From assembly GCA_023269085.1 (NCBI GenBank), contig JAHFML010000001.1:190356-254355 (forward strand): 64,000 bases of DNA, written 5' to 3'. This document shows, in pieces, positions 5,898 through 58,224 of this stretch (position 1 is its first letter; every line of letters begins with the position of its first letter). The position numbers and the translations under genes are program-made. This DNA is from a bacterium. Lineage in GTDB: Bacteria > Patescibacteriota > Minisyncoccia > Phycocordibacterales > Phycocordibacteraceae. Under the pieces are notes generated by a model, which saw nothing but the letters and a program-made list of their open reading frames with translations, was not told where the DNA came from and ran no database searches.

Positions 5898-8705
5898 TTA
5901 GAAAAAGTTTACGAGAGCGACCCAGAGCCTATGTAGACCAGTATAAACCCCGCTCGCCAGATTATTGAGGATCGACGGTGGAGAAGATACGGCGACGGCG
6001 GCCAACTGCGGTGCTGATTGCGGCGTATTGACTTGCACTTTCTTCGCGACCGACGAGGTGCGTGCGTTATGCGGCGACGAAACAACCCCCATAGCTCGAG
6101 TCGTCGTTGCACTGCTCGCTGTTGTCGACGCTGGAGTTGCGAGCACCGTCACACTCGTACTCGCGACCGATTGGCGCACCACGGGTATCGAGATACTCCC
6201 CGCCGAGGCGACTTGTCGCTTCTCTACTGGGGCTGGCGCGGGTGGCGTATAACTCACCGTCTCGCCACTCTTGAACGCAACCGTAAACGTCTTCCCGTCG
6301 CCCTGCTCGTCGACCGTGAGCGGCGAAGCGGTGTCGACACCACCCGACACCGAGAGGCTCGCGAGCGTGCTCGATGTCGTGGGCACATCGGCGATAGTGC
6401 TCGTGGTGACAACCGTGCCACCCAAGCTCTCCTGCATATCGAGCGAGAAGGTGCCGGCCGCTTGGCCGTGCAGAGTGAGGCTGTAGCTGTTTCCCTCCGG
6501 GACGGTGACATACTTCACCTCGCCGAATTCGGCATAGCTCGACCCGGGGATACCCTCAGCAATCGAACCGTCGCTCGCTATGCCGGTCACATTCCCCGAT
6601 GCGTCACTAATCTGGAGCGTGAGCGGCGAATGGAGGAAGAAGGTGAGCTTCTTGGCACTAGAGGTTATTGGTGCCGTAGTAGAAATAGATTGAGGTAGAG
6701 AACCATTATTGTTTGTGAGAATATTTTTTAGAAAATCTCTTAAGTCAGAATTCTCAAATATATTGCCGTGAGCTACCGAGGAATTGGCTAAATCCACCCA
6801 ATACCTCTTCACCTTCGCGCTCTTGGACATCGCGAGCGCGCTCGGGACCGGGACCGTGCCATCGCCGTCCTCGACGAGGATAGGGCGATACTTACGATCG
6901 GGCGCGCCGAGGCCGAGCCTGCTCGCGAGATTCTCTTGGGTATAGAAGTCGATGCCGGCGACGGTCGTGTCCACGCCCCAGCCCGCTATCTGGTCGACCT
7001 CGATGCTCGCCGGCGGTACCCATGCGTCGAGCGTGTCGTGGGTGGCATTGGCGTAATCGACAAGCGATGCGTTCGCGATCTTCGGCGAGGCGAGATCCTT
7101 ATCGGCGGCTTGCGAGCGCCCGCCGTCTCTCGCGAGGATGAAGTCGTCGAGCGCTACGCGATTAGCGATGGTCGCACCATATGCCGCCCCCTCTTTGGCA
7201 TAGCCATCGCCCTCGAACTTCACGACCGGATGATCGGCGAGGCTCGGGAGTGTGCTCTCAAAATATTCTTCGGAGGGGAGCAGGTGGTAGGCCATCGGCG
7301 AATTCTGCGAGAGGGTGCGCGCCGCCTGATTCGAGATAATCTTAATTGAACCAAGAGGGACATTCTTGACCGAGATATTTTTATAAATGCCGGCGCCATA
7401 CCCCACCAAGAGCGACCCGACGTCTGATGGCGCGCCTGTCTGCGGCACCGCGACCATGATGACCTTGTCGACGAGGCTCGCCGCTTCGCTGTCGCCGAGC
7501 TCGTGGAGGAGCGCCTTCGCGACGAGGCCGCCGTTGCTGTGCGCTACGATAGTCACCTTCCCCGTTTTCGAGCTCGCGGCGAGCGCGCGAAGCGTCTGCT
7601 CGATATAGGGCGTGCTGGTCGCCTCTTCGTAGTAGATTTTGTTGTCGCGTTCGGTGCCCTTCGCGAGCAGGTCGTCGAGCGAGAGCCGCCAGTCATACGC
7701 GACCGGCTTCCAGTCGGCTATCGTGCCGCCTGCCTTCAAGCCTTGCATCTCCTCCATGACTGACTGGTAGAGATTGGTGCCCTGTACCGCATCGATGACG
7801 TCGCCGTCTTTGGTATAGATGTCCGCGCACTTGCTCTCGCCACTCACGTCGAGGCCGAGCTCGGCGACCTTTGCATCGCCCTTCTCGGCAACGACATTCC
7901 AACCCTCCGACCAGAACCCGTCATCGGTCGGGTCCCAGAGTTTCTCTTCTGCCGACTTGCCGCAACCAGTGCCCTCGTAGAGCCGACTGCCCTCGATCCC
8001 CGGCAAGAAGAGGACATTTGAGACACAGCCGCCCGCGGCGCAGGGGTCGGGCAGGGTGACGGTGAACGACACCATGCCGATGAAGTGATACACCGGATTG
8101 GTCCAACTCGAAGCACCACTTTCAAATTCGGCATGAAAATCACTGATTGGTGTCGGCGGGTTGCAGTCATCGGGAGTCAGACACATCGCGGCATAATCGC
8201 GAAGATTATCAGTGCCATACAAAACTGCCGAATAGGTACCCGGGGCGGAGAATGTAACGGTTGCGGCCGTCGTGAGCCGGGCGCTACTTGCGTTCAATTG
8301 TTCGCCCGAGACGAAGGTCGCATTGTGGAAAAGGTCGCCTTTATAGAAATCGAGATAGAAAGCGTTCGTGTATGTTTTGCTATCCGGCGTACCATCAAAC
8401 GCATCGGGAGTCGGCATATTGTAAATATGCTGATCCGTCCAATACGTAGACCAGTCGGCAAACCCGCCGGGCACGGGCAAAACGCTGACCGAGACCGGCA
8501 GGGTCGCGCCAACCGGCAATTCGATCGTACTACTAGCGACTATCGGGTGGCCATCGATAGCAAGCGTGAGATTGAGATCGGGTGCTGGCAGTGAAGGCGA
8601 CGAACCGATACCGCCGACTGTTTCTGCTTGCGCTGGCAGAACTGCGAATAACAACGAGGCGAACAGGACGAGAAAAAAGATTCGCGTGAGCCGGTTGGCT
8701 GACAT
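5898..8705 (-). CDS. large secreted alpha/beta-hydrolase, lipase/LCAT/PGAP1-like
   Basis: signal peptide MSANRLTRIFFLVLFASLLFAVLPAQA; lipase nucleophile motif VTIVAHSNGGLV (A-H-S-x-G); Thr/Ser-rich C-terminal region. Confidence 0.6.
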   Translation of the reverse strand: MSANRLTRIFFLVLFASLLFAVLPAQAETVGGIGSSPSLPAPDLNLTLAIDGHPIVASSTIELPVGATLPVSVSVLPVPGGFADWSTYWTDQHIYNMPTPDAFDGTPDSKTYTNAFYLDFYKGDLFHNATFVSGEQLNASSARLTTAATVTFSAPGTYSAVLYGTDNLRDYAAMCLTPDDCNPPTPISDFHAEFESGASSWTNPVYHFIGMVSFTVTLPDPCAAGGCVSNVLFLPGIEGSRLYEGTGCGKSAEEKLWDPTDDGFWSEGWNVVAEKGDAKVAELGLDVSGESKCADIYTKDGDVIDAVQGTNLYQSVMEEMQGLKAGGTIADWKPVAYDWRLSLDDLLAKGTERDNKIYYEEATSTPYIEQTLRALAASSKTGKVTIVAHSNGGLVAKALLHELGDSEAASLVDKVIMVAVPQTGAPSDVGSLLVGYGAGIYKNISVKNVPLGSIKIISNQAARTLSQNSPMAYHLLPSEEYFESTLPSLADHPVVKFEGDGYAKEGAAYGATIANRVALDDFILARDGGRSQAADKDLASPKIANASLVDYANATHDTLDAWVPPASIEVDQIAGWGVDTTVAGIDFYTQENLASRLGLGAPDRKYRPILVEDGDGTVPVPSALAMSKSAKVKRYWVDLANSSVAHGNIFENSDLRDFLKNILTNNNGSLPQSISTTAPITSSAKKLTFFLHSPLTLQISDASGNVTGIASDGSIAEGIPGSSYAEFGEVKYVTVPEGNSYSLTLHGQAAGTFSLDMQESLGGTVVTTSTIADVPTTSSTLASLSVSGGVDTASPLTVDEQGDGKTFTVAFKSGETVSYTPPAPAPVEKRQVASAGSISIPVVRQSVASTSVTVLATPASTTASSATTTRAMGVVSSPHNARTSSVAKKVQVNTPQSAPQLAAVAVSSPPSILNNLASGVYTGLHRLWVALVNFF

Positions 8706-42991: not shown

Positions 42992-43465
42992 GGGCGAATA
43001 GTATCACGCACATAGACAAACGTGCGCCCCCGAATGAACGGGGGCGTTTTCTTACCAGCGACGTTTTCGCTTCCCTTTCTGGGAATCCAGACTGAGGAGC
43101 GTTAGCCGGAATGGCGGGCCGATTTCTTGTGTAGCCGGCGTAGGCGGTACTCTCGTCGCCACCCAAGCCATCGAGCCGAGGCTGAGTACTGCACCCGTGG
43201 CGATTAAACCAAAAAACAACATTTCTGTCTTCATAGCATCCTCCTGACATGTTGAACCCAATGGAAGACTATCACAAAACTTGAGAAAAAACTTTGGGCG
43301 ACCTGTGGGGCTTGGTCACAGATAATTCACTCGCCGTCGCTCGTGAATTTCCGCGACCTCGCCTCGCGGTTTCGCCTGCTGGCGAAACATCGCTCCGGCC
43401 TTCAAGCCCCAAAGCACAGCGCCTTACGCTGTGCTTCCGGCGCCCTCTCATCGAGGACTCTTCAA

Positions 43466-43540
43466 GGGCGACCTGTGGGGCTTGAACCCACGACCCTCGG
43501 TACCACAAACCGATGCTCTACCAGCTGAGCTAAGGCCGCC
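43466..43540 (-). tRNA. tRNA-His (GTG)
   Basis: cloverleaf folded by hand: G-1 encoded and paired to C73; D-stem GCTC/GAGC; anticodon loop TTGTGGT; T-loop TTCAAGC. Confidence 0.85.
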
Positions 43541-44220: not shown

Positions 44221-44370
44221 ATGCTCTATGTGCCTTGGACCGAGAAGCCCTCGATCATCCCGCATGTAAGCCGCGGGGCATTCTGGATAGGAGTTGCGGT
44301 TGCCATTTTCATTCTGGCAATCCTCTCCTTACCAGTCATCTTCCCCTTTCCGCACGACCTCCCCTACTGA
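44221..44370 (+). CDS. possible 49-aa membrane peptide (MLYVPWTEKPSIIPHVSRGAFWIGVAVAIFILAILSLPVIFPFPHDLPY)
   Basis: AGGAG RBS 8 nt upstream; TTGACT box upstream; hairpin+T-run terminator ~44396-44424 downstream; below the ORF-track size cutoff. Confidence 0.3.
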   Translation: MLYVPWTEKPSIIPHVSRGAFWIGVAVAIFILAILSLPVIFPFPHDLPY

Positions 44371-44589
44371 ACTACAAAAAGAGGTCGTGCGTTCACCGGA
44401 CGCCTTGCGTCCGGTTTTCATTTTGTGCCCGGGAGGCTTGGCCACGCATAATTTCTTGCTAGAAATTTGCGCGAGCCCCGCCTCGCGCCGTCGCGCTCCG
44501 GCCTTCAAGTCCTTGCTCCTGTTTGCTCCGCAAACAGTTGCGCCTCCCGGCCAAAATGAAAAGCACCCTTTCGGGTGCTTTTCATTTTG

Positions 44590-44676
44590 TGCCCGGGAGA
44601 GGACTTGAACCTCCATTCCCATAACAGGAGCTACCACCTCAAGGTAGTGCGTCTATCCAATTTCGCCACCCGGGCA
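44590..44676 (-). tRNA. tRNA-Leu (GAG)
   Basis: 87 nt; long variable arm; anticodon loop TTGAGGT; acceptor GCCCGGG/CCCGGGC, discriminator A. Confidence 0.85.
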
Positions 44677-48033: not shown

Positions 48034-48108
48034 TGGTGCCCCCGCGAGGAGTCGGACCTCGAATAGCGGCTTAGAAGTCCGCAGTTATATCCGTTTAACT
48101 ACAGGGGC
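48034..48108 (-). tRNA. tRNA-Arg (TCT)
   Basis: 75 nt incl. CCA; acceptor GCCCCTG/CGGGGGC; D-loop AACGGATA with A20; anticodon loop CTTCTAA; imperfect 31-39 pair. Confidence 0.7.
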
Positions 48109-51878: not shown

Positions 51879-52352
51879 ATGGCTACGAACAGCATCGCCG
51901 AGTGGGAAGGAAAAGAATACGAGCACAACCCAAAGAGCGCCGACTGGTATTGGGTGCTCGGCATCGTTGCCGTCGCGGGCGCAACCGCTTCTCTCCTCTT
52001 CGGGAATTACCTTCTCACTGTTCTCATCATCATCGCGACAGCCGCCATCGCGCTTCACGCCGCGAAGGTTCCCTCTCTCCATCAGTTCCGTCTCGTCGAG
52101 CAGGGTCTGCTGATCGGCGACGTTCTCCACCCCTTCGAGCAGATGGAATCATTCACCGTGCTCGAAGATATCGAGGGCGAGCTCCCGCCGCTCCTCTCGA
52201 TAAAGACTGAGAATTGGCACTCCCCGCACCTCGTGATCCCGCTCGAGGGCGTCGACGCCGACATGGTCTACGCCTACTTCCTCCATCATGTCGACGAGAG
52301 CGAACATCACCACACCTTCTCTGACCTAGTGGCGGCGTGGCTCGGTTTCTGA
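51879..52352 (+). CDS. hypothetical membrane protein
   Basis: 157 aa; two TM helices; His-rich C-terminus. Confidence 0.35.
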   Translation: MATNSIAEWEGKEYEHNPKSADWYWVLGIVAVAGATASLLFGNYLLTVLIIIATAAIALHAAKVPSLHQFRLVEQGLLIGDVLHPFEQMESFTVLEDIEGELPPLLSIKTENWHSPHLVIPLEGVDADMVYAYFLHHVDESEHHHTFSDLVAAWLGF

Positions 52353-52367
52353 TATACCTACAGTATT

Positions 52368-52439
52368 GCTCTCGTCGTTCAACGGATAGGACACCAGCTT
52401 GCGGAGCTGGCAATCAAGGTTCGATTCCTTGCGAGAGCA
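52368..52439 (+). tRNA. tRNA-Arg (GCG)
   Basis: 72 nt, no CCA; shares 5' half GCTCTCGTCGTTCAACGGATAGGA and T-arm with tRNA-Arg(CCG) at 58150; anticodon loop TTGCGGA. Confidence 0.7.
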
Positions 52440-52735
52440 CAATAAAGCGAAGCGAATATTGTGCTCGAGAGCACGTCTGGGAGACGTGCGGCAAGGAATC
52501 GAAAACCTTGCGAGCATTTTATCGAGCTTTCTGAAGCGAAGAAAAAATCCGCAAGGTGTACGCTGAGATTTTAAAAGAGCGAAGCGACTATTAAAATCCA
52601 AGTGCAGTTTCGAAGAAAGCTGCCTGAACCTGTAAGGTTCGATAAGCGTACTCGCGGTCCTTGCAAGCGTACTTTTCATTCTGAACGATTTGCAGGAAGA
52701 CGTCTCGTAGTACTATAAATACTGAGAATTAACGT

Positions 52736-53290
52736 ATGTCTAAATCTACTAACCTTAAATACTACTATCTCGAACAATATCTTGAAACAGAGGTACGGCC
52801 TTATTTTGAAAAAGAACATCACCTTACATCCGAACAGTTTTTTGCGATTATCGAATGGAAGAATCCGAAGTTTGGAAAGACTAAACTCACACACCTCAAA
52901 CCAAAAGACATAGAAAAACTTTTTAAAACTATTTACGGCGAGTCTAGGGAAAAGCAACTGAAAATTCTAGTAGACATTAAAGGTCTAAAGCTAGCCACTG
53001 CTTCTGCAATCCTTACGATTCTATATCCAGAAAGGTTTACGGTTTATGATGTGCGTGTTCGAAAGCAATTAAGAAAGCGAGGTCTGTGGGAAGAAGAACC
53101 CGATGATATTACTTATTGTGTCGACGTGGTAAATAGATACTTTGATAAATATCTACCCCCGATAGAGAAACTGGCTACAGACAGCGGGCTATCACTTCGT
53201 GATTGCGATCGTGCCTTGTGGGCACAAGATTGGCATGAAGACCTGATGGACTTCATTATTGCAGGTTCGAGCGAAAACAACACGGTTTAA
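52736..53290 (+). CDS. hypothetical protein (possible HhH-like motif), low-GC
   Basis: 184 aa; IKGLKLATASAILTILYPERFTVYDVRV; ~40% GC. Confidence 0.3.
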   Translation: MSKSTNLKYYYLEQYLETEVRPYFEKEHHLTSEQFFAIIEWKNPKFGKTKLTHLKPKDIEKLFKTIYGESREKQLKILVDIKGLKLATASAILTILYPERFTVYDVRVRKQLRKRGLWEEEPDDITYCVDVVNRYFDKYLPPIEKLATDSGLSLRDCDRALWAQDWHEDLMDFIIAGSSENNTV

Positions 53291-53298
53291 AATAATAT

Positions 53299-53913
53299 AT
53301 GAACTACTTCAAACCGATCCTGTATAGCATCAGTGTCCTTCTACTGGTCGCGCTGGTGTCCATTCGGTATCAACACGCAACACAAAAGGTTGTTGTGCCG
53401 ACTGTCTCATCAGCAACCTCATCAAACGACGCACCCTCTGATATGAGTCCCAACTGTGCCGCCTATTACAACAACGCAGGGAACGGTACGGACCCAATTG
53501 ATACGGAGCTCGCCGACTTCACTAACTTACACCCACTTTCTGATTATCTCTGCGGATCATATTCAGATGTCCTGAAGACGACACTAGCTGACGGCAAGGT
53601 TCTCTATTTTGTAGATCCAATCGCTCAAGAATCGTGTGGTAGCGGCGGGTGTACATATTTCCCCATGATTGAGGAGAGGCCGGGCGCAATCCGCCGTATA
53701 CGCGGTTTTACGGGTGGTTCTGACGCAGGTGATGACTCAGTCTTTGGCTTCCTGTCTTTCCCAAAGAAAGGAGTGGTGGAGGTGTACTGGCACGAGTCGG
53801 CAACATGCGGCACGACGAACACTTACGGATTCACTGCTACCGATACTCCTTATCTAATCTCCACATCTGACAGCTGCTCACAAGAAGGAGGCGTACAGCC
53901 TCAAAGAAAATAG
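53299..53913 (+). CDS. secreted/membrane-anchored Cys-rich hypothetical protein
   Basis: 204 aa; N-terminal hydrophobic segment; 8+ Cys. Confidence 0.35.
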   Translation: MNYFKPILYSISVLLLVALVSIRYQHATQKVVVPTVSSATSSNDAPSDMSPNCAAYYNNAGNGTDPIDTELADFTNLHPLSDYLCGSYSDVLKTTLADGKVLYFVDPIAQESCGSGGCTYFPMIEERPGAIRRIRGFTGGSDAGDDSVFGFLSFPKKGVVEVYWHESATCGTTNTYGFTATDTPYLISTSDSCSQEGGVQPQRK

Positions 53914-53930
53914 GTGCTCGTATTTATCTC

Positions 53931-54002
53931 GCCTCCGTAAGCTAACGGATAAACTACCTCGCTTCTATCGAGGCCTTGGGGGTTCGAATCCTCTCGGAGG
54001 CA
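53931..54002 (+). tRNA. tRNA-Arg (TCT), second copy, island-associated
   Basis: 72 nt; acceptor GCCTCCG/CGGAGGC; D-loop AACGGATA; anticodon stem CCTCG/CGAGG, loop CTTCTAT; T-loop TTCGAAT. Confidence 0.65.
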
Positions 54003-54015
54003 CTGATGGTAAATC

Positions 54016-54154
54016 CTCGCCGCGATTTCGTTTCCCGCTTCGGCCGAATCAATCGACCATGCCGTAGCGGGCAACCCCGAGGCCATCATGGCGCAGGTCG
54101 GCGCCATGCACCTTACGCCGCTTTCCGATCAGGATGCGGCGCAGGTGCGAGGTG
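54016..54154 (+). repeat. leader-module repeat copy 1 (5'-truncated; starts 14 nt after the tRNA)
   Basis: 139 bp nearly identical to the 3' part of copies 2 and 3. Confidence 0.8.
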
Positions 54155-54393
54155 AGGGAATCTCTGTAGCCGTATTGATTGTCAACCTCAAGTGGCTTTA
54201 CAAAGTTTCCGCACCTTTCAGGCAATTCATGAGTGGCTACAGAGCGAGTCAGATATTTGGTTGGGAATGGGGCAGAGCGTTATCAATTGCCCAAGGCAAT
54301 CCAGATCCTGGGCAATTGTCTAGCCATTCGCTAGAAGCTACATTCATTTACTGGCTTGGTAATAACTGGACATATCAACTCTTTTACAAATAG
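54088..54393 (+). CDS. cassette 1: truncated secreted-peptide precursor (conserved leader remnant + unique AT-rich C-terminal part)
   Basis: MAQVGAMHLTPLSDQDAAQVRG then divergent 80 aa; in-frame upstream TAA removes the signal peptide, so possibly a pseudogene. Confidence 0.4.
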   Translation: MAQVGAMHLTPLSDQDAAQVRGEGISVAVLIVNLKWLYKVSAPFRQFMSGYRASQIFGWEWGRALSIAQGNPDPGQLSSHSLEATFIYWLGNNWTYQLFYK

Positions 54394-54495
54394 CACACAT
54401 GAAATATATGCGTGGCGCTCTGTAGAAACTGATGAGTCCAAAGAGGGTCTACAGACCCTCTTTTTATTTGTCATGATTGTGGTAGATTCCCTTAT

Positions 54496-54840
54496 ATGAA
54501 GAAACTACTAAACAAAATCCTGTTTGCACAATATCTCTTCGCGCCAGAGATTATTCCTTTATTGGCGATTCTTTACTTCTTCGCCATGGTCTTTTCGGTG
54601 CACTTTGTGTTGTCTCTTTTTGTAGAAATAAACACGACTATCTTGATTTGGGTCTTCGTTATTGCCATGGTGGTGTTTGCCGTAACATTTCTTCCCGTAA
54701 TGATGCGGTTTGCGAGTGGTTGGCCATCGGGAAAAGAGGAGGAAAATTTGATTGATAAGTCCAGTCCAAGTGATCGTATTATTTATACTCTACTGTTTCT
54801 CGCTTCTATCTTCGTATTTTATTATATCTATGTGAAATAA
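54496..54840 (+). CDS. small polytopic membrane protein (immunity-protein-like), AT-rich
   Basis: 114 aa; 3 TM helices; directly downstream of cassette 1. Confidence 0.35.
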   Translation: MKKLLNKILFAQYLFAPEIIPLLAILYFFAMVFSVHFVLSLFVEINTTILIWVFVIAMVVFAVTFLPVMMRFASGWPSGKEEENLIDKSSPSDRIIYTLLFLASIFVFYYIYVK

Positions 54841-54920
54841 GAAGCTGACGTGTTTGGGGTGAACAGATACGCAACCAAATGGCGTATGGTATGTTGAGAA
54901 GTGGACATAGTTCTTTTCCC

Positions 54921-55143
54921 GAAGAACATCCTGTCCGTTCCCTTCAAACTCTCAAGGAGTCTGCAATGCGTACAGCATTCACTGCAGTACTCGCGGCGAT
55001 ATCCCTCGCCGCGATTTCGTTTCCCGCTTCGGCCGAACCGATCGACCATGCCGTAGCGGGCAACCCCGAGGCCATCATGGCGCAGGTCGGCGCCATGCAC
55101 CTTACGCCGCTTTCCGATCAGGATGCGGCGCAGGTGCGAGGTG
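54921..55143 (+). repeat. leader-module repeat copy 2 (5' UTR + RBS + signal peptide + conserved leader)
   Basis: ~223 bp, ~98% identical to copy 3. Confidence 0.85.
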
Positions 55144-55331
55144 CAGCATGGATGATTCCTGGTTGGATGTACGCCATCGTTTCTAAATTTCTGAGTGCAG
55201 GACATCTGGTAAGCTCATTCGGCGCCAGTTACCTGAATCAGATGGCGGCCGAGTATGGCTGGAAAATAAACGGCATCCCAGTACGGTTCTCTCTCATGGA
55301 TGCAATCTTCGTAGCTCCACCTGCACGTTAA
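54966..55331 (+). CDS. cassette 2: secreted peptide precursor (Sec signal + conserved LSDQDAAQVRG leader + unique Trp/Tyr-rich C-terminal peptide)
   Basis: AAGGAG RBS; MRTAFTAVLAAISLAAISFPASA signal with AxA site; conserved 36-aa leader; unique 62-aa tail. Confidence 0.55.
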   Translation: MRTAFTAVLAAISLAAISFPASAEPIDHAVAGNPEAIMAQVGAMHLTPLSDQDAAQVRGAAWMIPGWMYAIVSKFLSAGHLVSSFGASYLNQMAAEYGWKINGIPVRFSLMDAIFVAPPAR

Positions 55332-55394
55332 ACAATACTCAAAGTACGGTTTGATGTGTATAACCGGACGCCCCCAATTGGGGGCGTTTTTATA

Positions 55395-56150
55395 TCATAG
55401 ACTTGTGATTAAGTTCCCAATAATGTCTGATTTTCGTATCGGTCCGAACGAGCGTGAGTCGGTGCTTGAAGCGCGATTATCACCAAGCACAAAATATTCA
55501 TCGGGACCGAGCGTGGTGACAGAATCCGGTGTTGTGCTCCCGAGTGAATAGGGTTCATTTAATGATAATCCGTTTGCGGACACTACTCCACCACGAATAT
55601 CGATACGCTCGCCAGGTAATCCGATAACTCGCTTAATGATAAATGCTGGTGCCGATACATCTTGTTCACGCGATACAACCACCTCTCCTCGCAGGAAATT
55701 GTGCGGGATTTCATTTACAATGAGGTACGCTCCGTTTTGATACGTTGGTATCATGGAGTCCCCACTCATCACAAATGGCGAAACGATAAACATCCTAATC
55801 ATCAGTGCCAAGGGCACTACTATTGCAATAGTTATACTGATTGATGCAAGATAGGCACTTGTTGCACGTAGAAAAGATACGGGGAATCTCCTCTTGAGGA
55901 GCCACGTGCAGATACCGATTGATACGATCGCGTCGAATACGAGCGGGATTGGCAATGCGACGATGCGCACCATTTCTCCCGCAAGTCCGCCCGCGATATT
56001 TGCCACGAGCACAGTGATAACGGCATACCCAAATGTCGGACGAGGGAATGCAAACCTTCTTTCGACCCACAGGAGAACAGCGGAGCTAAGTGTGAGAGAC
56101 AGAACGGCAACTACTGTCATAACAATGATGAGCACTGTTGAGATATTCAT
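55395..56150 (-). CDS. lepB: signal peptidase I (S26) with unusual ~120-aa, 4-TM N-terminal extension
   Basis: catalytic SGDSMIPT and GDNRASSTDSRSFG motifs; start taken at MNISTV. Confidence 0.8.
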   Translation of the reverse strand: MNISTVLIIVMTVVAVLSLTLSSAVLLWVERRFAFPRPTFGYAVITVLVANIAGGLAGEMVRIVALPIPLVFDAIVSIGICTWLLKRRFPVSFLRATSAYLASISITIAIVVPLALMIRMFIVSPFVMSGDSMIPTYQNGAYLIVNEIPHNFLRGEVVVSREQDVSAPAFIIKRVIGLPGERIDIRGGVVSANGLSLNEPYSLGSTTPDSVTTLGPDEYFVLGDNRASSTDSRSFGPIRKSDIIGNLITSL

Positions 56151-56207
56151 ATCTACTAAGAATACCACGTGTGGTGTTCGGTGATATTCGATTATTTCGA
56201 GTTAAGA

Positions 56208-56431
56208 AGAAGAACATCCTGTCCGTTCCCTTCAAACTCTCAAGGAGTCTGCAATGCGTAAAACATTCACGGCAGTACTCGCGGCGATATCCCTCGCCGC
56301 GATTTCGTTTCCCGCTTCGGCCGAACCAATCGACCATGCCGTAGCGGGCAACCCCGAGGCCATCATGGCGCAGGTCGGCGCCATGCACCTTACGCCGCTT
56401 TCCGATCAGGATGCGGCGCAGGTGCGAGGTG
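56208..56431 (+). repeat. leader-module repeat copy 3
   Basis: ~224 bp. Confidence 0.85.
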
Positions 56432-56595
56432 AGTTCTTGCCCGCTGCGATTATCCCAATGTTGAATTACATTTACTACTTGGGGGTGATGTATGGAATAC
56501 CTACCGCAGTTAATTACGCAGCGGAGATCGGCAGTAGCCCTTGGATTGCAAAGCAATATGTGAAGGACCAAGTCAAGAAGTATTTTGGCTGGTAA
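56254..56595 (+). CDS. cassette 3: secreted peptide precursor (same signal + leader, different C-terminal peptide ending KYFGW)
   Basis: MRKTFTAVLAAISLAAISFPASAEPIDHAVAGNPEAIMAQVGAMHLTPLSDQDAAQVRGE then a unique hydrophobic/aromatic 55 aa. Confidence 0.55.
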   Translation: MRKTFTAVLAAISLAAISFPASAEPIDHAVAGNPEAIMAQVGAMHLTPLSDQDAAQVRGEFLPAAIIPMLNYIYYLGVMYGIPTAVNYAAEIGSSPWIAKQYVKDQVKKYFGW

Positions 56596-56694
56596 GCAAT
56601 TCGATGAGTACTGAATAACTTCGGCATCAACAAAAAGTGCCATGCTGGATCAGCATGGCACTTTACTATATAAATCTGATACAATTTCACTATC

Positions 56695-57081
56695 ATGATC
56701 TTCTGGAAGATATTTGCTTGGACAAATGCAATTATAAATGTTCCGTTCGTTATAGCGGCTCTTTTCGTCACGCCAGTGTTCCACGCCCTCGATGTCGCCG
56801 TATGGTTATTCAACGACTTTCCATTACTGGCTGTCCCTTTCTTGTTTGCGTACAAAGTACACGGAAAGAGATATATTCCTGCACTCGGTGTTTTAAAAGC
56901 TATTTTTGTTTTCTCTATAACTTATAACACCATTCACACCATCTCCGATTTCAAAGTATACCACTTCACTAGTATGCCCGGATTCCTGTTCGATTTGTCT
57001 TTTTATATCCTCATCATTCTGTCATTAATTTCTTTTTTGTTCTACATAAAAATGGAACGCGGCCTACAAGCGCATCATTAG
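56695..57081 (+). CDS. small polytopic membrane protein (immunity-protein-like), AT-rich
   Basis: 128 aa; 4 TM helices; directly downstream of cassette 3. Confidence 0.35.
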   Translation: MIFWKIFAWTNAIINVPFVIAALFVTPVFHALDVAVWLFNDFPLLAVPFLFAYKVHGKRYIPALGVLKAIFVFSITYNTIHTISDFKVYHFTSMPGFLFDLSFYILIILSLISFLFYIKMERGLQAHH

Positions 57082-57433
57082 CGCAGATCATATTCCACTT
57101 CCAGCGGCAGAGTTCCATCGTGGTAGATTCACTATATATGAAAGACTGCAAAAAGACAGGAACAACCATATGATGCATACTATATGAAGGGAGATCTCTA
57201 ATATATGGAAATCACTTTTTTCTCTGCGCTTAAACTTATAGGAATTGTTCTCGGGCTTGTGGCCATTTTTGCGAGTTTTGCTTTCCCTCTATTTTCAAGC
57301 ACTCAATTTGATGACATGCCAATCTGGATAAAAATCCTCGTTCCCATGATTATTACGGCGATTTCATTTTGGGTTATACGATAATCCGCAAACGAATATT
57401 TTAAAAATATCCTGGATACCGTATTGTTATCGC

Positions 57434-57631
57434 ATGCAAAAAATACTGTTCGATATTCTTATTTTGATTGGTGTCGGTATTGGCATTTTGTCGATTACTG
57501 CCCAAATAGCCCATAGTCTGTTCTCGGGCGTATCTTTCGATTCTTTGTCATGGAAAGTCAAAATGGCCATGGCAGTTGTGGTGGCACTCATTTTCTCAAT
57601 TTTTGAATGGTACACGTATACTCTCCTGTAA
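57434..57631 (+). CDS. small 2-TM membrane peptide, AT-rich
   Basis: 65 aa; a second 59-aa membrane peptide ORF lies at ~57206-57385 (MEITFFSALKLIGIVLGLVAIFASF...). Confidence 0.25.
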   Translation: MQKILFDILILIGVGIGILSITAQIAHSLFSGVSFDSLSWKVKMAMAVVVALIFSIFEWYTYTLL

Positions 57632-57698
57632 CAAGACCTAATTACGGATACTAAGAAGTCCCGCGATTGGTAGTCGCGGGACTGTGGCGCATCGATAT

Positions 57699-58061
57699 TC
57701 ATGTTTCTCCTCCCGCTGAACAGACAACCCAAACGTCCCACGGCAAAATGTCTTTGTCGTTGATGCCCGACAACACGGCATTGGCGCCCTGACGAATGGC
57801 GTCCGGTACGAGGAAATGCTCGTGCGTGAGCATCTCGAGCGGGCAAGCGACCCGCACGATCTTGGTCGGTCGGCCGTAGGTGTCATAGGTGACCACCCGC
57901 GGACGTTCGTCCCAAAGGGACTGGAAGATGGAAATGGTCGGGGTGGGTTGAAGACTCACCTTCTGCAGATACGGATTCCCTCCCGGGTCGCCGCGTGCGA
58001 GAGGTATGAGGCCAAGTGCCGCAATAAGTGCGGCGAGTGCGATAAAGAGCTTGCGGTTCAT
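57699..58061 (-). CDS. secreted hypothetical protein
   Basis: start at MNRKLFIALAALIAALGLIPLARG (signal peptide); GC-rich. Confidence 0.35.
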   Translation of the reverse strand: MNRKLFIALAALIAALGLIPLARGDPGGNPYLQKVSLQPTPTISIFQSLWDERPRVVTYDTYGRPTKIVRVACPLEMLTHEHFLVPDAIRQGANAVLSGINDKDILPWDVWVVCSAGGET

Positions 58062-58149: not shown

Positions 58150-58224
58150 GCTCTCGTCGTTCAACGGATAGGATAGCCCCCTCCGAAGGGGCCGATGACG
58201 GTTCGATTCCGTCCGAGAGCACCA
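58150..58224 (+). tRNA. tRNA-Arg (CCG)
   Basis: 75 nt incl. CCA; anticodon stem GCCCC/GGGGC, loop CTCCGAA; 5' half identical to tRNA-Arg(GCG). Confidence 0.8.

Follow-up and report, generated by a model that had tools for sequence, protein, structure and literature searches.

Why do the last nucleotides of an intact transfer RNA gene, together with its trailer, reappear a short distance downstream of that gene, and why does another tRNA gene close by carry an appendage of the same kind? The question is posed by tRNA-Leu(GAG) and tRNA-His in the window (the whole stretch of 64,000 nucleotides that was analysed), where a preliminary description had proposed a small mobile or recombination-associated sequence family. 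A family indeed exists, it proves to be large, and its members, which may be mobile, vary in presence and absence among relatives. Two further features are absent from that description, namely an antisense copy of the tRNA end and an RNA-like structure.

The end of tRNA-Leu(GAG) in triplicate

The repeat behind tRNA-Leu(GAG) is real and exact. The 21-mer TTTTCATTTTGTGCCCGGGAG occurs twice, at 44415-44435 and 44579-44599, with a spacing of 164 nucleotides; the copy far from the gene had previously been placed two bases off (44413-44433), and the distance had been given as 165 bp. On the tRNA strand, where the gene ends in CTCCCGGGCA and continues into the trailer CAAAATGAAAA, the 21-mer corresponds to the final 10 nucleotides of the tRNA plus 11 nucleotides of trailer. 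The hairpins said to precede both repeat copies are present when the plus strand is read (Table 1), and the one on the 5' side of the far copy has a 9-bp stem. This latter hairpin abuts the tail of the Leu element and is a terminator-like site for a convergent 49-aa open reading frame (44221-44370, plus strand), which lies between the element and an adenosyltransferase gene. Gene calls in relatives include the same frame, with 49 aa in L121 and 58 aa in L123.

The 21-nucleotide repeat bounds a 166-bp block on the minus strand. Its parts follow in the order tRNA 3' end with trailer, terminator-like hairpin, antisense 3' end, small hairpin (P0), core and second sense copy, and the tRNA-Leu end is therefore present in triplicate as sense, antisense and sense. 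Read along the tRNA strand, the palindrome that begins with the trailer resembles an intrinsic terminator, and in the relative L132 a similar hairpin serves as a plain terminator, GCACCTGAAAGGGTG. Immediately 3' of the hairpin GCACCC-GAAA-GGGTGC, the sequence TTTTCATTTTG-GCCGGGAGG is the antisense of the trailer and the acceptor strand. The core is a three-way junction closed by P1, which is formed by the anti-T arm and the tail. Small deletions in the T-loop and T-stem part of the tail are common to the relative L122, whose P0 module is also the same, and other subfamilies carry different P0 hairpins. We rejected the idea that the whole arrangement is an intrinsic terminator only: the palindrome fits this description, but the blocks shared with the tRNA-His segment lie in a core that has no U-run.

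Table 1. Coordinates of the tRNA-Leu(GAG) element, its flanks and its sister element in the window
Feature	Position	Strand	Evidence or remark
tRNA-Leu(GAG), intact, host gene of the Leu element	44589-44675	-	ARAGORN; Rfam tRNA 48.5 bits
Direct repeat copy 1: final 10 nt of tRNA-Leu(GAG) and 11-nt trailer CAAAATGAAAA	44579-44599	-	exact 21-mer repeat
Perfect 17-bp palindrome: trailer, GCACCC-GAAA-GGGTGC, antisense trailer	44552-44589 (arms 44552-44568 and 44573-44589)	-	
Anti-acceptor arm GCCGGGAGGC, complementary to the tRNA 3' acceptor strand and to the tail copy	44542-44551	-	inverted repeat 44423-44437 with 44542-44556, 87%
P0 hairpin CTGTTTGC-GGA-GCAAACAG, between anti-acceptor and anti-T arms	44519-44537	-	
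Anti-T arm AGGACTTGAA, exact complement of tRNA positions 54-63 (TTCAAGTCCT)	44504-44513	-	10-nt antisense match at +75
Conserved core: GAAG / P2 (GCC-GGA-GCG..CGC-GA-GGC) / GG / P3 (GGCTCGCG...hairpin...GCGTGGCC)	44440-44506	-	model match 44419-44520, 81.5 bits; covariation
Tail, second sense copy of the tRNA 3' end: CAAGCC-TCCCGGGCA and CAAAATGAAAA	44415-44439	-	final 21 nt are direct repeat copy 2
Flanking hairpin, then TTTTCATTTTG; terminator-like site of the convergent 49-aa ORF	44395-44415	+	also present in L123, where the site is empty
Sister element behind tRNA-His (43466-43539): anti-T arm, core with long P2 hairpin, tail	43292-43417	-	model 66.5 bits

The tRNA-His element has the same plan and the same core. 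The final 19 nucleotides of tRNA-His (43466-43484) recur as a tail at 43296-43314, with a spacing of 170. The blocks reported as common to the two segments are confirmed: the 16-mer CGCTCCGGCCTTCAAG is exact in both, and GCCTCGCG is shared as well. Within the window, CGCTCCGGCCTTCAAG occurs without mismatch only at 44494-44509 and 43391-43406, a short-word BLAST search with both elements found no further copies, and none of the other eight tRNAs is followed by a direct repeat of its own 3' end.

A third tRNA-appended element, which follows the same plan with a different core, lies behind tRNA-Arg(GCG) (52368-52440) at 52441-52640 on the plus strand. Its order is trailer, a GCGAAGC mini-hairpin, the antisense tRNA end TATTGTGCTC (+16), a P0 hairpin and the antisense T arm GCAAGGAATCGAA (+50), and its core is of another type (TCGAAAACC...GTGTAC...GTTTCGAA) that is also found nested in L022 and L091. 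Permissive Rfam searches of this region returned only tRNAs. The heptamers GCGAAGC and GCGTAGC, which we take to be unusually stable DNA mini-hairpin motifs, are frequent in spacer and P0 hairpins (e.g. L108, L096, L089 and L106); in the window, sites of this type lie at 52446-52456, 52533-52541 and 52578-52588. The surrounding region (52000-58000) has a GC content of 0.46-0.48, compared with about 0.58 elsewhere, and lies between several tRNA-Arg genes; most of its open reading frames lack a Pfam match, and one encodes a signal peptidase. The trailer of tRNA-Arg(TCT) contains a 14-mer, CCTCGCCGCGATTT (54015-54028), that is found again at 55004 and at 56292. The first 24 nucleotides of tRNA-Arg(GCG) and tRNA-Arg(CCG) are identical (52368-52391 and 58150-58173), and two tRNA-Arg(TCT) genes reside on opposite strands (48034-48108 and 53931-54003).

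A structured family in Patescibacteria

A covariance model (R1) built from 29 copies, all from genomes other than that of the window, recognizes both elements, with scores of 81.5 bits (E 6e-27) for the Leu element and 66.5 bits (E 2e-21) for the His element; the next-best match in the window reaches about 12 bits (12.3). The search for further copies that the initial observation called for was thereby answered with 79 matches at E < 1e-8 in 64 sequences, all of them Patescibacteria metagenome-assembled genomes (MAGs). It might be imagined that the repeat arose by chance, or that the likeness between the two segments reflects a common terminator consensus, given that the repeat includes an A/T-rich terminator tail and that both copies adjoin hairpins. 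However, the E values of the two window elements and the covariation among 79 homologous copies leave this explanation with almost no plausibility. The 16-mer CGCTCCGGCCTTCAAG in particular is part of the covarying three-way-junction core rather than of a terminator, so that neither an isolated occurrence nor a terminator consensus accounts for it.

The core spans 62-66 nucleotides, is conserved, and forms a three-way junction of P1 (antisense arm with tail), P2 and P3. Around the junction the order is P1, the linker GAAG, P2, the linker GG and P3, with no linker back to P1. P2 consists of GCC/GGC, an internal loop GGA/GA and GCG/CGC, followed either by a CGACGG tip or by a longer hairpin, whereas P3 comprises 16 base pairs with a bulged A and an AGCA-type loop; AGCA loops are frequent at the tips of both P2 and P3. 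Paired cells in the alignment amount to 93-94% (93.1% on 79 sequences) versus 35-47% in slid-partner controls, and compensatory changes, in which both sides are altered, occur at 29 of 32 pairs. P3 also contains a near-invariant G·U pair, which 75 of 76 sequences possess. The consensus fold reaches -35.4 on the tRNA-sense strand and -23.8 on the opposite strand. The minimum-energy fold of the His element coincides with the consensus three-way junction (-63.5 kcal/mol), with z = -6.0 on the tRNA strand versus z = -3.9 on the opposite strand. This better folding of the tRNA-sense strand indicates that the structure belongs to that strand, either as RNA or as single-stranded DNA.

A pattern scan with GAAGGCCGGAGCG-N(4-30)-CGCGAGGCG, in one genome per species, yielded at least 119 loci. 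About 57 of these are true elements, all in Patescibacteria, and the remainder are chance matches in GC-rich genomes. The hosts of the true elements are Saccharibacteria, Paceibacterota, Parcubacteria, Moranii-, Kaiser-, Nomura-, Berkel-, Campbell- and Doudnabacteria, and Minisyncoccia. Elements are about 90-170 nucleotides in size, carry no protein, are sporadic among relatives and can be tandem or nested. Placement is strongly biased: 63 of the 79 model matches have the orientation of a tRNA gene (27 anticodon species) or a tmRNA gene that lies no more than 260 nucleotides upstream of them, and 6 more are at contig ends. Both window elements have the features that define the family, including the P1/P2/P3 junction, the GAAG, GGA/GA and GG linkers, a location 3' of a tRNA and a tRNA-derived tail.

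Several placements are unusual. At tmRNA genes (L018 1152-1465, in tandem; L091 745-940; L039 ~7250-7490), the tails copy the tmRNA 3' end. Downstream of a 23S rRNA gene (L030 4108-4640), an old 5S copy is split by two oppositely oriented elements with an intact 5S gene between them, an arrangement which implies that elements are not confined to tRNA genes. At L094 (761-862), a core with no tRNA upstream is broken off inside P3, and its neighbours on the opposite strand encode an unknown 323-aa protein, a 69-aa protein and a LexA-like S24 peptidase; DUF695 is also present. We considered L094 as an autonomous version and rejected it, since these neighbours are unrelated to the element and include no recombinase.

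Across the family, the plan on the tRNA strand is an intact tRNA, a short spacer (often a terminator-like palindrome), an antisense arm, the core and a second sense tRNA copy. The antisense arm covers the T-loop and T-stem, in many cases together with the acceptor strand and the trailer, and the second sense copy usually runs from C56 to the discriminator and in some cases includes the trailer. In most copies, the 5' boundary of the direct repeat is C56 of the T-loop, which creates the junction GTGAC|C56. In the comparison that located this boundary the direct repeats measure 8-33 nucleotides, and with further copies included they range from 7 to about 38; some extend up to 13 nucleotides past the called tRNA end. 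In a few copies (the second of L051 and the first of L093) the junction is at the tRNA end and the arms are derived from the trailer, which points to a general rule of X, hairpin, antisense X, core, X. When compared with tRNA positions 57-65, 51 elements show 50 mismatches in the tail and 82 in the antisense arm, the latter mostly at its outer end. Arm length also varies. The minimal copies L113 and L090 have an antisense arm of only ~10 nucleotides, and the window, L122, L125, L019 and L020 carry a full antisense copy that is broken by a P0 hairpin, giving a mini-tRNA-like outline. Many copies have decayed tails and arms beside an intact tRNA. Two other origins for the tRNA-like portions were rejected. 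A degenerate tandem tRNA copy does not fit because P0 hairpins are common to elements at different tRNAs, and retro-copying of mature tRNA does not fit because CCA is not consistently present in the tails.

A direct repeat of a tRNA end is the signature of integrase-mediated insertion, for which the 3' ends of tRNA and tmRNA genes, including the T-loop, are classical targets. The repeats could in this case be the attL/attR scar of an island or prophage that has since been deleted, and the predominance of tRNA and tmRNA 3' parts as targets (63 of 79 copies, with the junction at C56, and the tmRNA sites in L018, L091 and L039) agrees with this explanation. We nevertheless judge it very improbable for five reasons. 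First, only about 145 nucleotides of hairpins and core, with no open reading frame, separate the repeats. Second, the same ~66-nucleotide core is found at 27 tRNA species, with a repeat that matches each local tRNA rather than being borne by the element. Third, an antisense copy is present, which att sites lack. Fourth, the core was not found in viral contigs or in phage or plasmid collections. Fifth, no integrase is encoded among the nine open reading frames scanned at 52.7-58.1 kb of the window.

Another possibility is that replication switched templates between two natural palindromes, the terminator hairpin and the T-arm, and left the sense-antisense-sense order as a by-product, and that the core is an unrelated hairpin-forming passenger at the second turn. 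Locus L131 (1124-1200) has tRNA-Leu(GAG), a terminator hairpin and a 28-nucleotide antisense of the trailer and tRNA end; this fold-back has neither core nor tail. Its antisense copy ending in the T-loop, the combination of the same arms with a different core at tRNA-Arg(GCG), and the fact that antisense arms always stop at T-loop positions 54-57 all speak for template switching. As a caution for any account of the family, the coreless L131 and the different core at tRNA-Arg(GCG) suggest that formation of the inverted and direct repeats may not depend on the core studied here. As an account of the family as a whole, however, we give template switching little credence, since it leaves unexplained a near-identical core of 62-66 nucleotides with covarying helices in about 80 copies from many Patescibacteria lineages, as well as the fixed junction GTGAC|C56.

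Gain, loss and possible function

The comparison of presence and absence suggested at the outset revealed both filled and empty sites among syntenic relatives. At tRNA-Leu(GAG), the site is filled in the window and in L122 and empty in 8 of 10 cases (L123 and seven more loci). At tRNA-His, it is filled in the window and in L125 and empty in 15 of 17. Among 18 further relatives, found via the neighbouring adenosyltransferase, no element was present at any of 13 tRNA-His and 7 tRNA-Leu(GAG) sites. An exact look-up of the L19 protein for population variants returned no record.

The closest relative with data, L123 (86% identity in the neighbouring adenosyltransferase), has an empty site in which tRNA-Leu(GAG) is followed by CAAAATGAAAA and CCGGCGCAGGGCGCCGG..., corresponding to the tail context of the window minus 166 bp, with the same hairpin next. 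L122 (79% identity in the adenosyltransferase) carries the element, and its P0 hairpin and small tail deletions match those of the window, so that the Leu insertion is probably old. The insertion is probably common to the window and L122, and L123 probably lost the element by recombination between the repeats. Because precise loss best explains L123, its empty site is no proof of gain, and at least part of the presence/absence polymorphism in general is probably due to such loss between direct repeats.

Other comparisons indicate more than one insertion. The tRNA-His elements of the window and L125 belong to different subfamilies (long versus short P2, a different P3, and P0 only in L125), which implies that they were inserted independently. 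In Moraniibacteria, the subfamily that follows tRNA-Leu in L019 is found behind a different tRNA, tRNA-Val, in L020 and L056. An identical 26-nucleotide P3 segment resides behind Leu(GAG), Gly(CCC), Gly(TCC) and Leu(TAA) in four genomes, and also behind both Phe and Leu(GAG) within L048. Nearest neighbours were compared on the P3 segment, as partial rows make the full model alignment misleading for this purpose.

Taken together, these observations favour the hypothesis, to which we assign a probability of roughly one half, that the family consists of selfish, non-coding insertion elements that are gained and lost and that act as a folded single strand. We infer that this strand is either RNA co-transcribed with the tRNA or single-stranded DNA. 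We prefer the selfish element over a functional tRNA-linked RNA on three grounds: the majority of syntenic sites lack an element, copies undergo decay, and different subfamilies have hit one and the same tRNA.

How might such an element insert? The 5' arm of the element would base-pair with the T-loop and T-stem strand of its target, and this pairing would set the 3' end of the core (GTGAC) beside C56. P3 and P1 would stack without a linker, a geometry that would suit strand joining. The terminator hairpin and the T-arm are natural palindromes, and joining combined with repair synthesis or template switching at them would duplicate the tRNA 3' end, so that the tRNA would stay intact and the sense-antisense-sense triplication would result. 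Later gene conversion could hold the arms matched to the adjacent tRNA, and recombination between the direct repeats would excise the element precisely. Perhaps the family even represents a new gene-less mobile genetic element or a mobile ribozyme-like RNA, which would target tRNA and tmRNA genes by pairing with the T-loop strand, rebuild the displaced tRNA end, and employ the junction as its catalytic or recognition centre; we put this forward only tentatively. The reading as a selfish insertion element is opposed by the many copies that have a terminator-like hairpin between tRNA and core, which would limit co-transcription, and by the fold-backs of a tRNA end that lack the core or carry a different one; our searches found no enzyme, free form or very recent insertion of the element.

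The alternative is that these sequences work for their hosts as functional RNA. They might assist the upstream tRNA in cis, as a 3' external transcribed spacer, or give rise to a tRNA-like small RNA, and their spread would then be secondary. In such a model, the antisense arm, P0 hairpin, core and tail would fold into a mini-tRNA with an acceptor-like stem, a single side arm, and a T stem that is extended and carries the three-way junction in place of a loop. Cleavage by RNase P or RNase Z is conceivable for such a molecule, as is self-cleavage at GUGAC|C as a ribozyme; alternatively, it could bind a protein. Many characteristics are consistent with a function of this type. The structure is strand-specific, one of its G·U pairs is invariant, tandem G·A forms an internal loop, and the nucleotides at the junction are conserved; the conserved junction, the G·U pair and the linker-free GUGAC|C junction strand might also be read as hints of a ribozyme. 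The same tRNAs (Leu-GAG, His, Gly and Val) recur across distant Patescibacteria, and in L125 the anti-acceptor arm pairs with the tail through a perfect 11 bp that include the G:C73 typical of tRNA-His.

The orthologous copies of the window and L122 differ by compensatory changes in P3 and in the trailer/anti-trailer hairpin, and a substitution in the tRNA acceptor stem appears alike in the tRNA, the antisense arm and the tail. These matched changes fit selection for RNA function equally well as concerted evolution of selfish DNA. The empty sites at 15 of 17 syntenic tRNA-His and 8 of 10 tRNA-Leu(GAG) positions, the presence of the element at only 2 of the 10 tRNAs of the window, the many decayed tails and arms beside intact tRNAs, the absence of an acceptor-like stem from the minimal copies L113 and L090, and the terminators that often precede the core all weigh against a function. 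We therefore regard a functional RNA as possible, and the selfish element as the preferred reading.

Patescibacteria genomes are tiny, and several copies of this element per genome in many lineages constitute an overlooked part of these reduced genomes, missed by annotation, by Rfam and by the searchable literature. If the elements are mobile, they would insert harmlessly into essential RNA genes without an encoded enzyme, and would offer programmable arms on a compact structure of RNA or DNA. If they are functional, they would form a new tRNA-linked RNA class in hosts whose tRNA processing is poorly known. Either way, they account for odd 3'-end duplications behind tRNAs, the covariance model allows them to be annotated, and caution is warranted because repeats behind tRNAs are not always integrase att sites.

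Comparison with known systems

Rfam 15, which includes self-cleaving ribozyme classes, HEARO and tRNA-like RNAs, was searched at the gathering threshold over the whole window and more permissively over the two elements and the region of tRNA-Arg(GCG); only tRNAs were recovered, with no other match near the gathering threshold. In viral contigs, the only match is a chance one inside a GC-rich coding region, and phage and plasmid collections yielded no match to the core. Searches of the literature by core sequence and keywords retrieved no description, and a microbiome survey of structured RNAs omits these taxa.

The closest parallels in placement are integrative elements that target tRNA and tmRNA genes, such as tyrosine-integrase att sites and CIME-type remnants. 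They likewise have a 3' target and a T-loop junction, supply a replacement 3' end that keeps the gene intact, and leave the displaced 3' fragment as a direct repeat. In contrast, the elements described here have no integrase or cargo and measure 90-170 nucleotides in all. Their repeat follows each of 27 tRNA species, they also possess an antisense copy and a single-strand structure that is conserved, and their core is missing from the phage and plasmid collections. We also rejected a homing spacer of a CRISPR-associated transposon and an IS605-type guide RNA, because no transposon or nuclease is present and the intact tRNA would be a self-target.

Miniature elements such as MITEs, REPINs and PATEs are also small, non-coding, multi-copy, hairpin-forming and sporadic, and at times tandem or nested. 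However, their terminal inverted repeats are borne by the element and their target duplications are short and fixed, whereas here the arms copy the target, the centre is conserved and the direct repeat ranges from 7 to about 38 nucleotides. We rejected assignment to the MITEs because the arms vary with each tRNA instead of forming conserved terminal inverted repeats, and because a short target-site duplication of fixed length is lacking.

Self-splicing introns that pair with their flanks, by the internal guide sequence of group I or the EBS/IBS contacts of group II, are likewise structured RNAs whose 5' part pairs with a flank, and group IIC introns that home to terminator hairpins share the association with terminators. 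The present elements are far too small by comparison, leave the tRNA uninterrupted, pair downstream of the junction and have no splice-site features that we recognized. Patescibacteria are rich in group I introns, tRNA genes included, where the introns sit at position 35/36, and no tRNA-appended element is mentioned in that account (PMC13011429). A group I or II intron was rejected for our elements, over which no Rfam intron match appears at E <= 10 and upstream of which the tRNAs are intact. Within the 23S rRNA gene of a Kaiserbacteria MAG (L030 3505-3735), a group I intron is matched weakly, at 27.7 bits, which falls short of the gathering score.

In form only, the element resembles folded single-strand sites such as integron attC, the CTX-phage attP hairpin and the T-shaped terminal hairpins of parvoviruses, which are strand-specific hairpins that keep shape over sequence and in which two small hairpins sit on a long stem in a T or Y shape. 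The sense-antisense-sense order similarly recalls, again in form only, rolling-hairpin concatemers. Here, unlike in those systems, we found no R/L boxes, Rep or integrase gene, or viral genome.

Finally, the element shares with tRNA-like structures and 3'ETS RNAs (the tRNA-like domain of tmRNA, viral TLS, mascRNA and 3'ETS-leuZ) the mimicry of a tRNA acceptor and T-arm and the position directly 3' of a tRNA, and a putative RNA made from it could be released by tRNA-processing enzymes. It differs in having a 66-nucleotide junction in place of the T-loop and in its minimal copies, which lack an acceptor-like stem. To our knowledge, the combination of a conserved single-strand junction, inverted and direct repeats derived from the target, specificity for tRNA and tmRNA genes, and the lack of any gene fits no known class. 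We therefore treat these sequences as a new family of tRNA-appended structured elements that is set apart from att sites, MITEs, introns and plain terminators, and that is apparently a widespread and hitherto undescribed small structured element of candidate-phyla-radiation bacteria.
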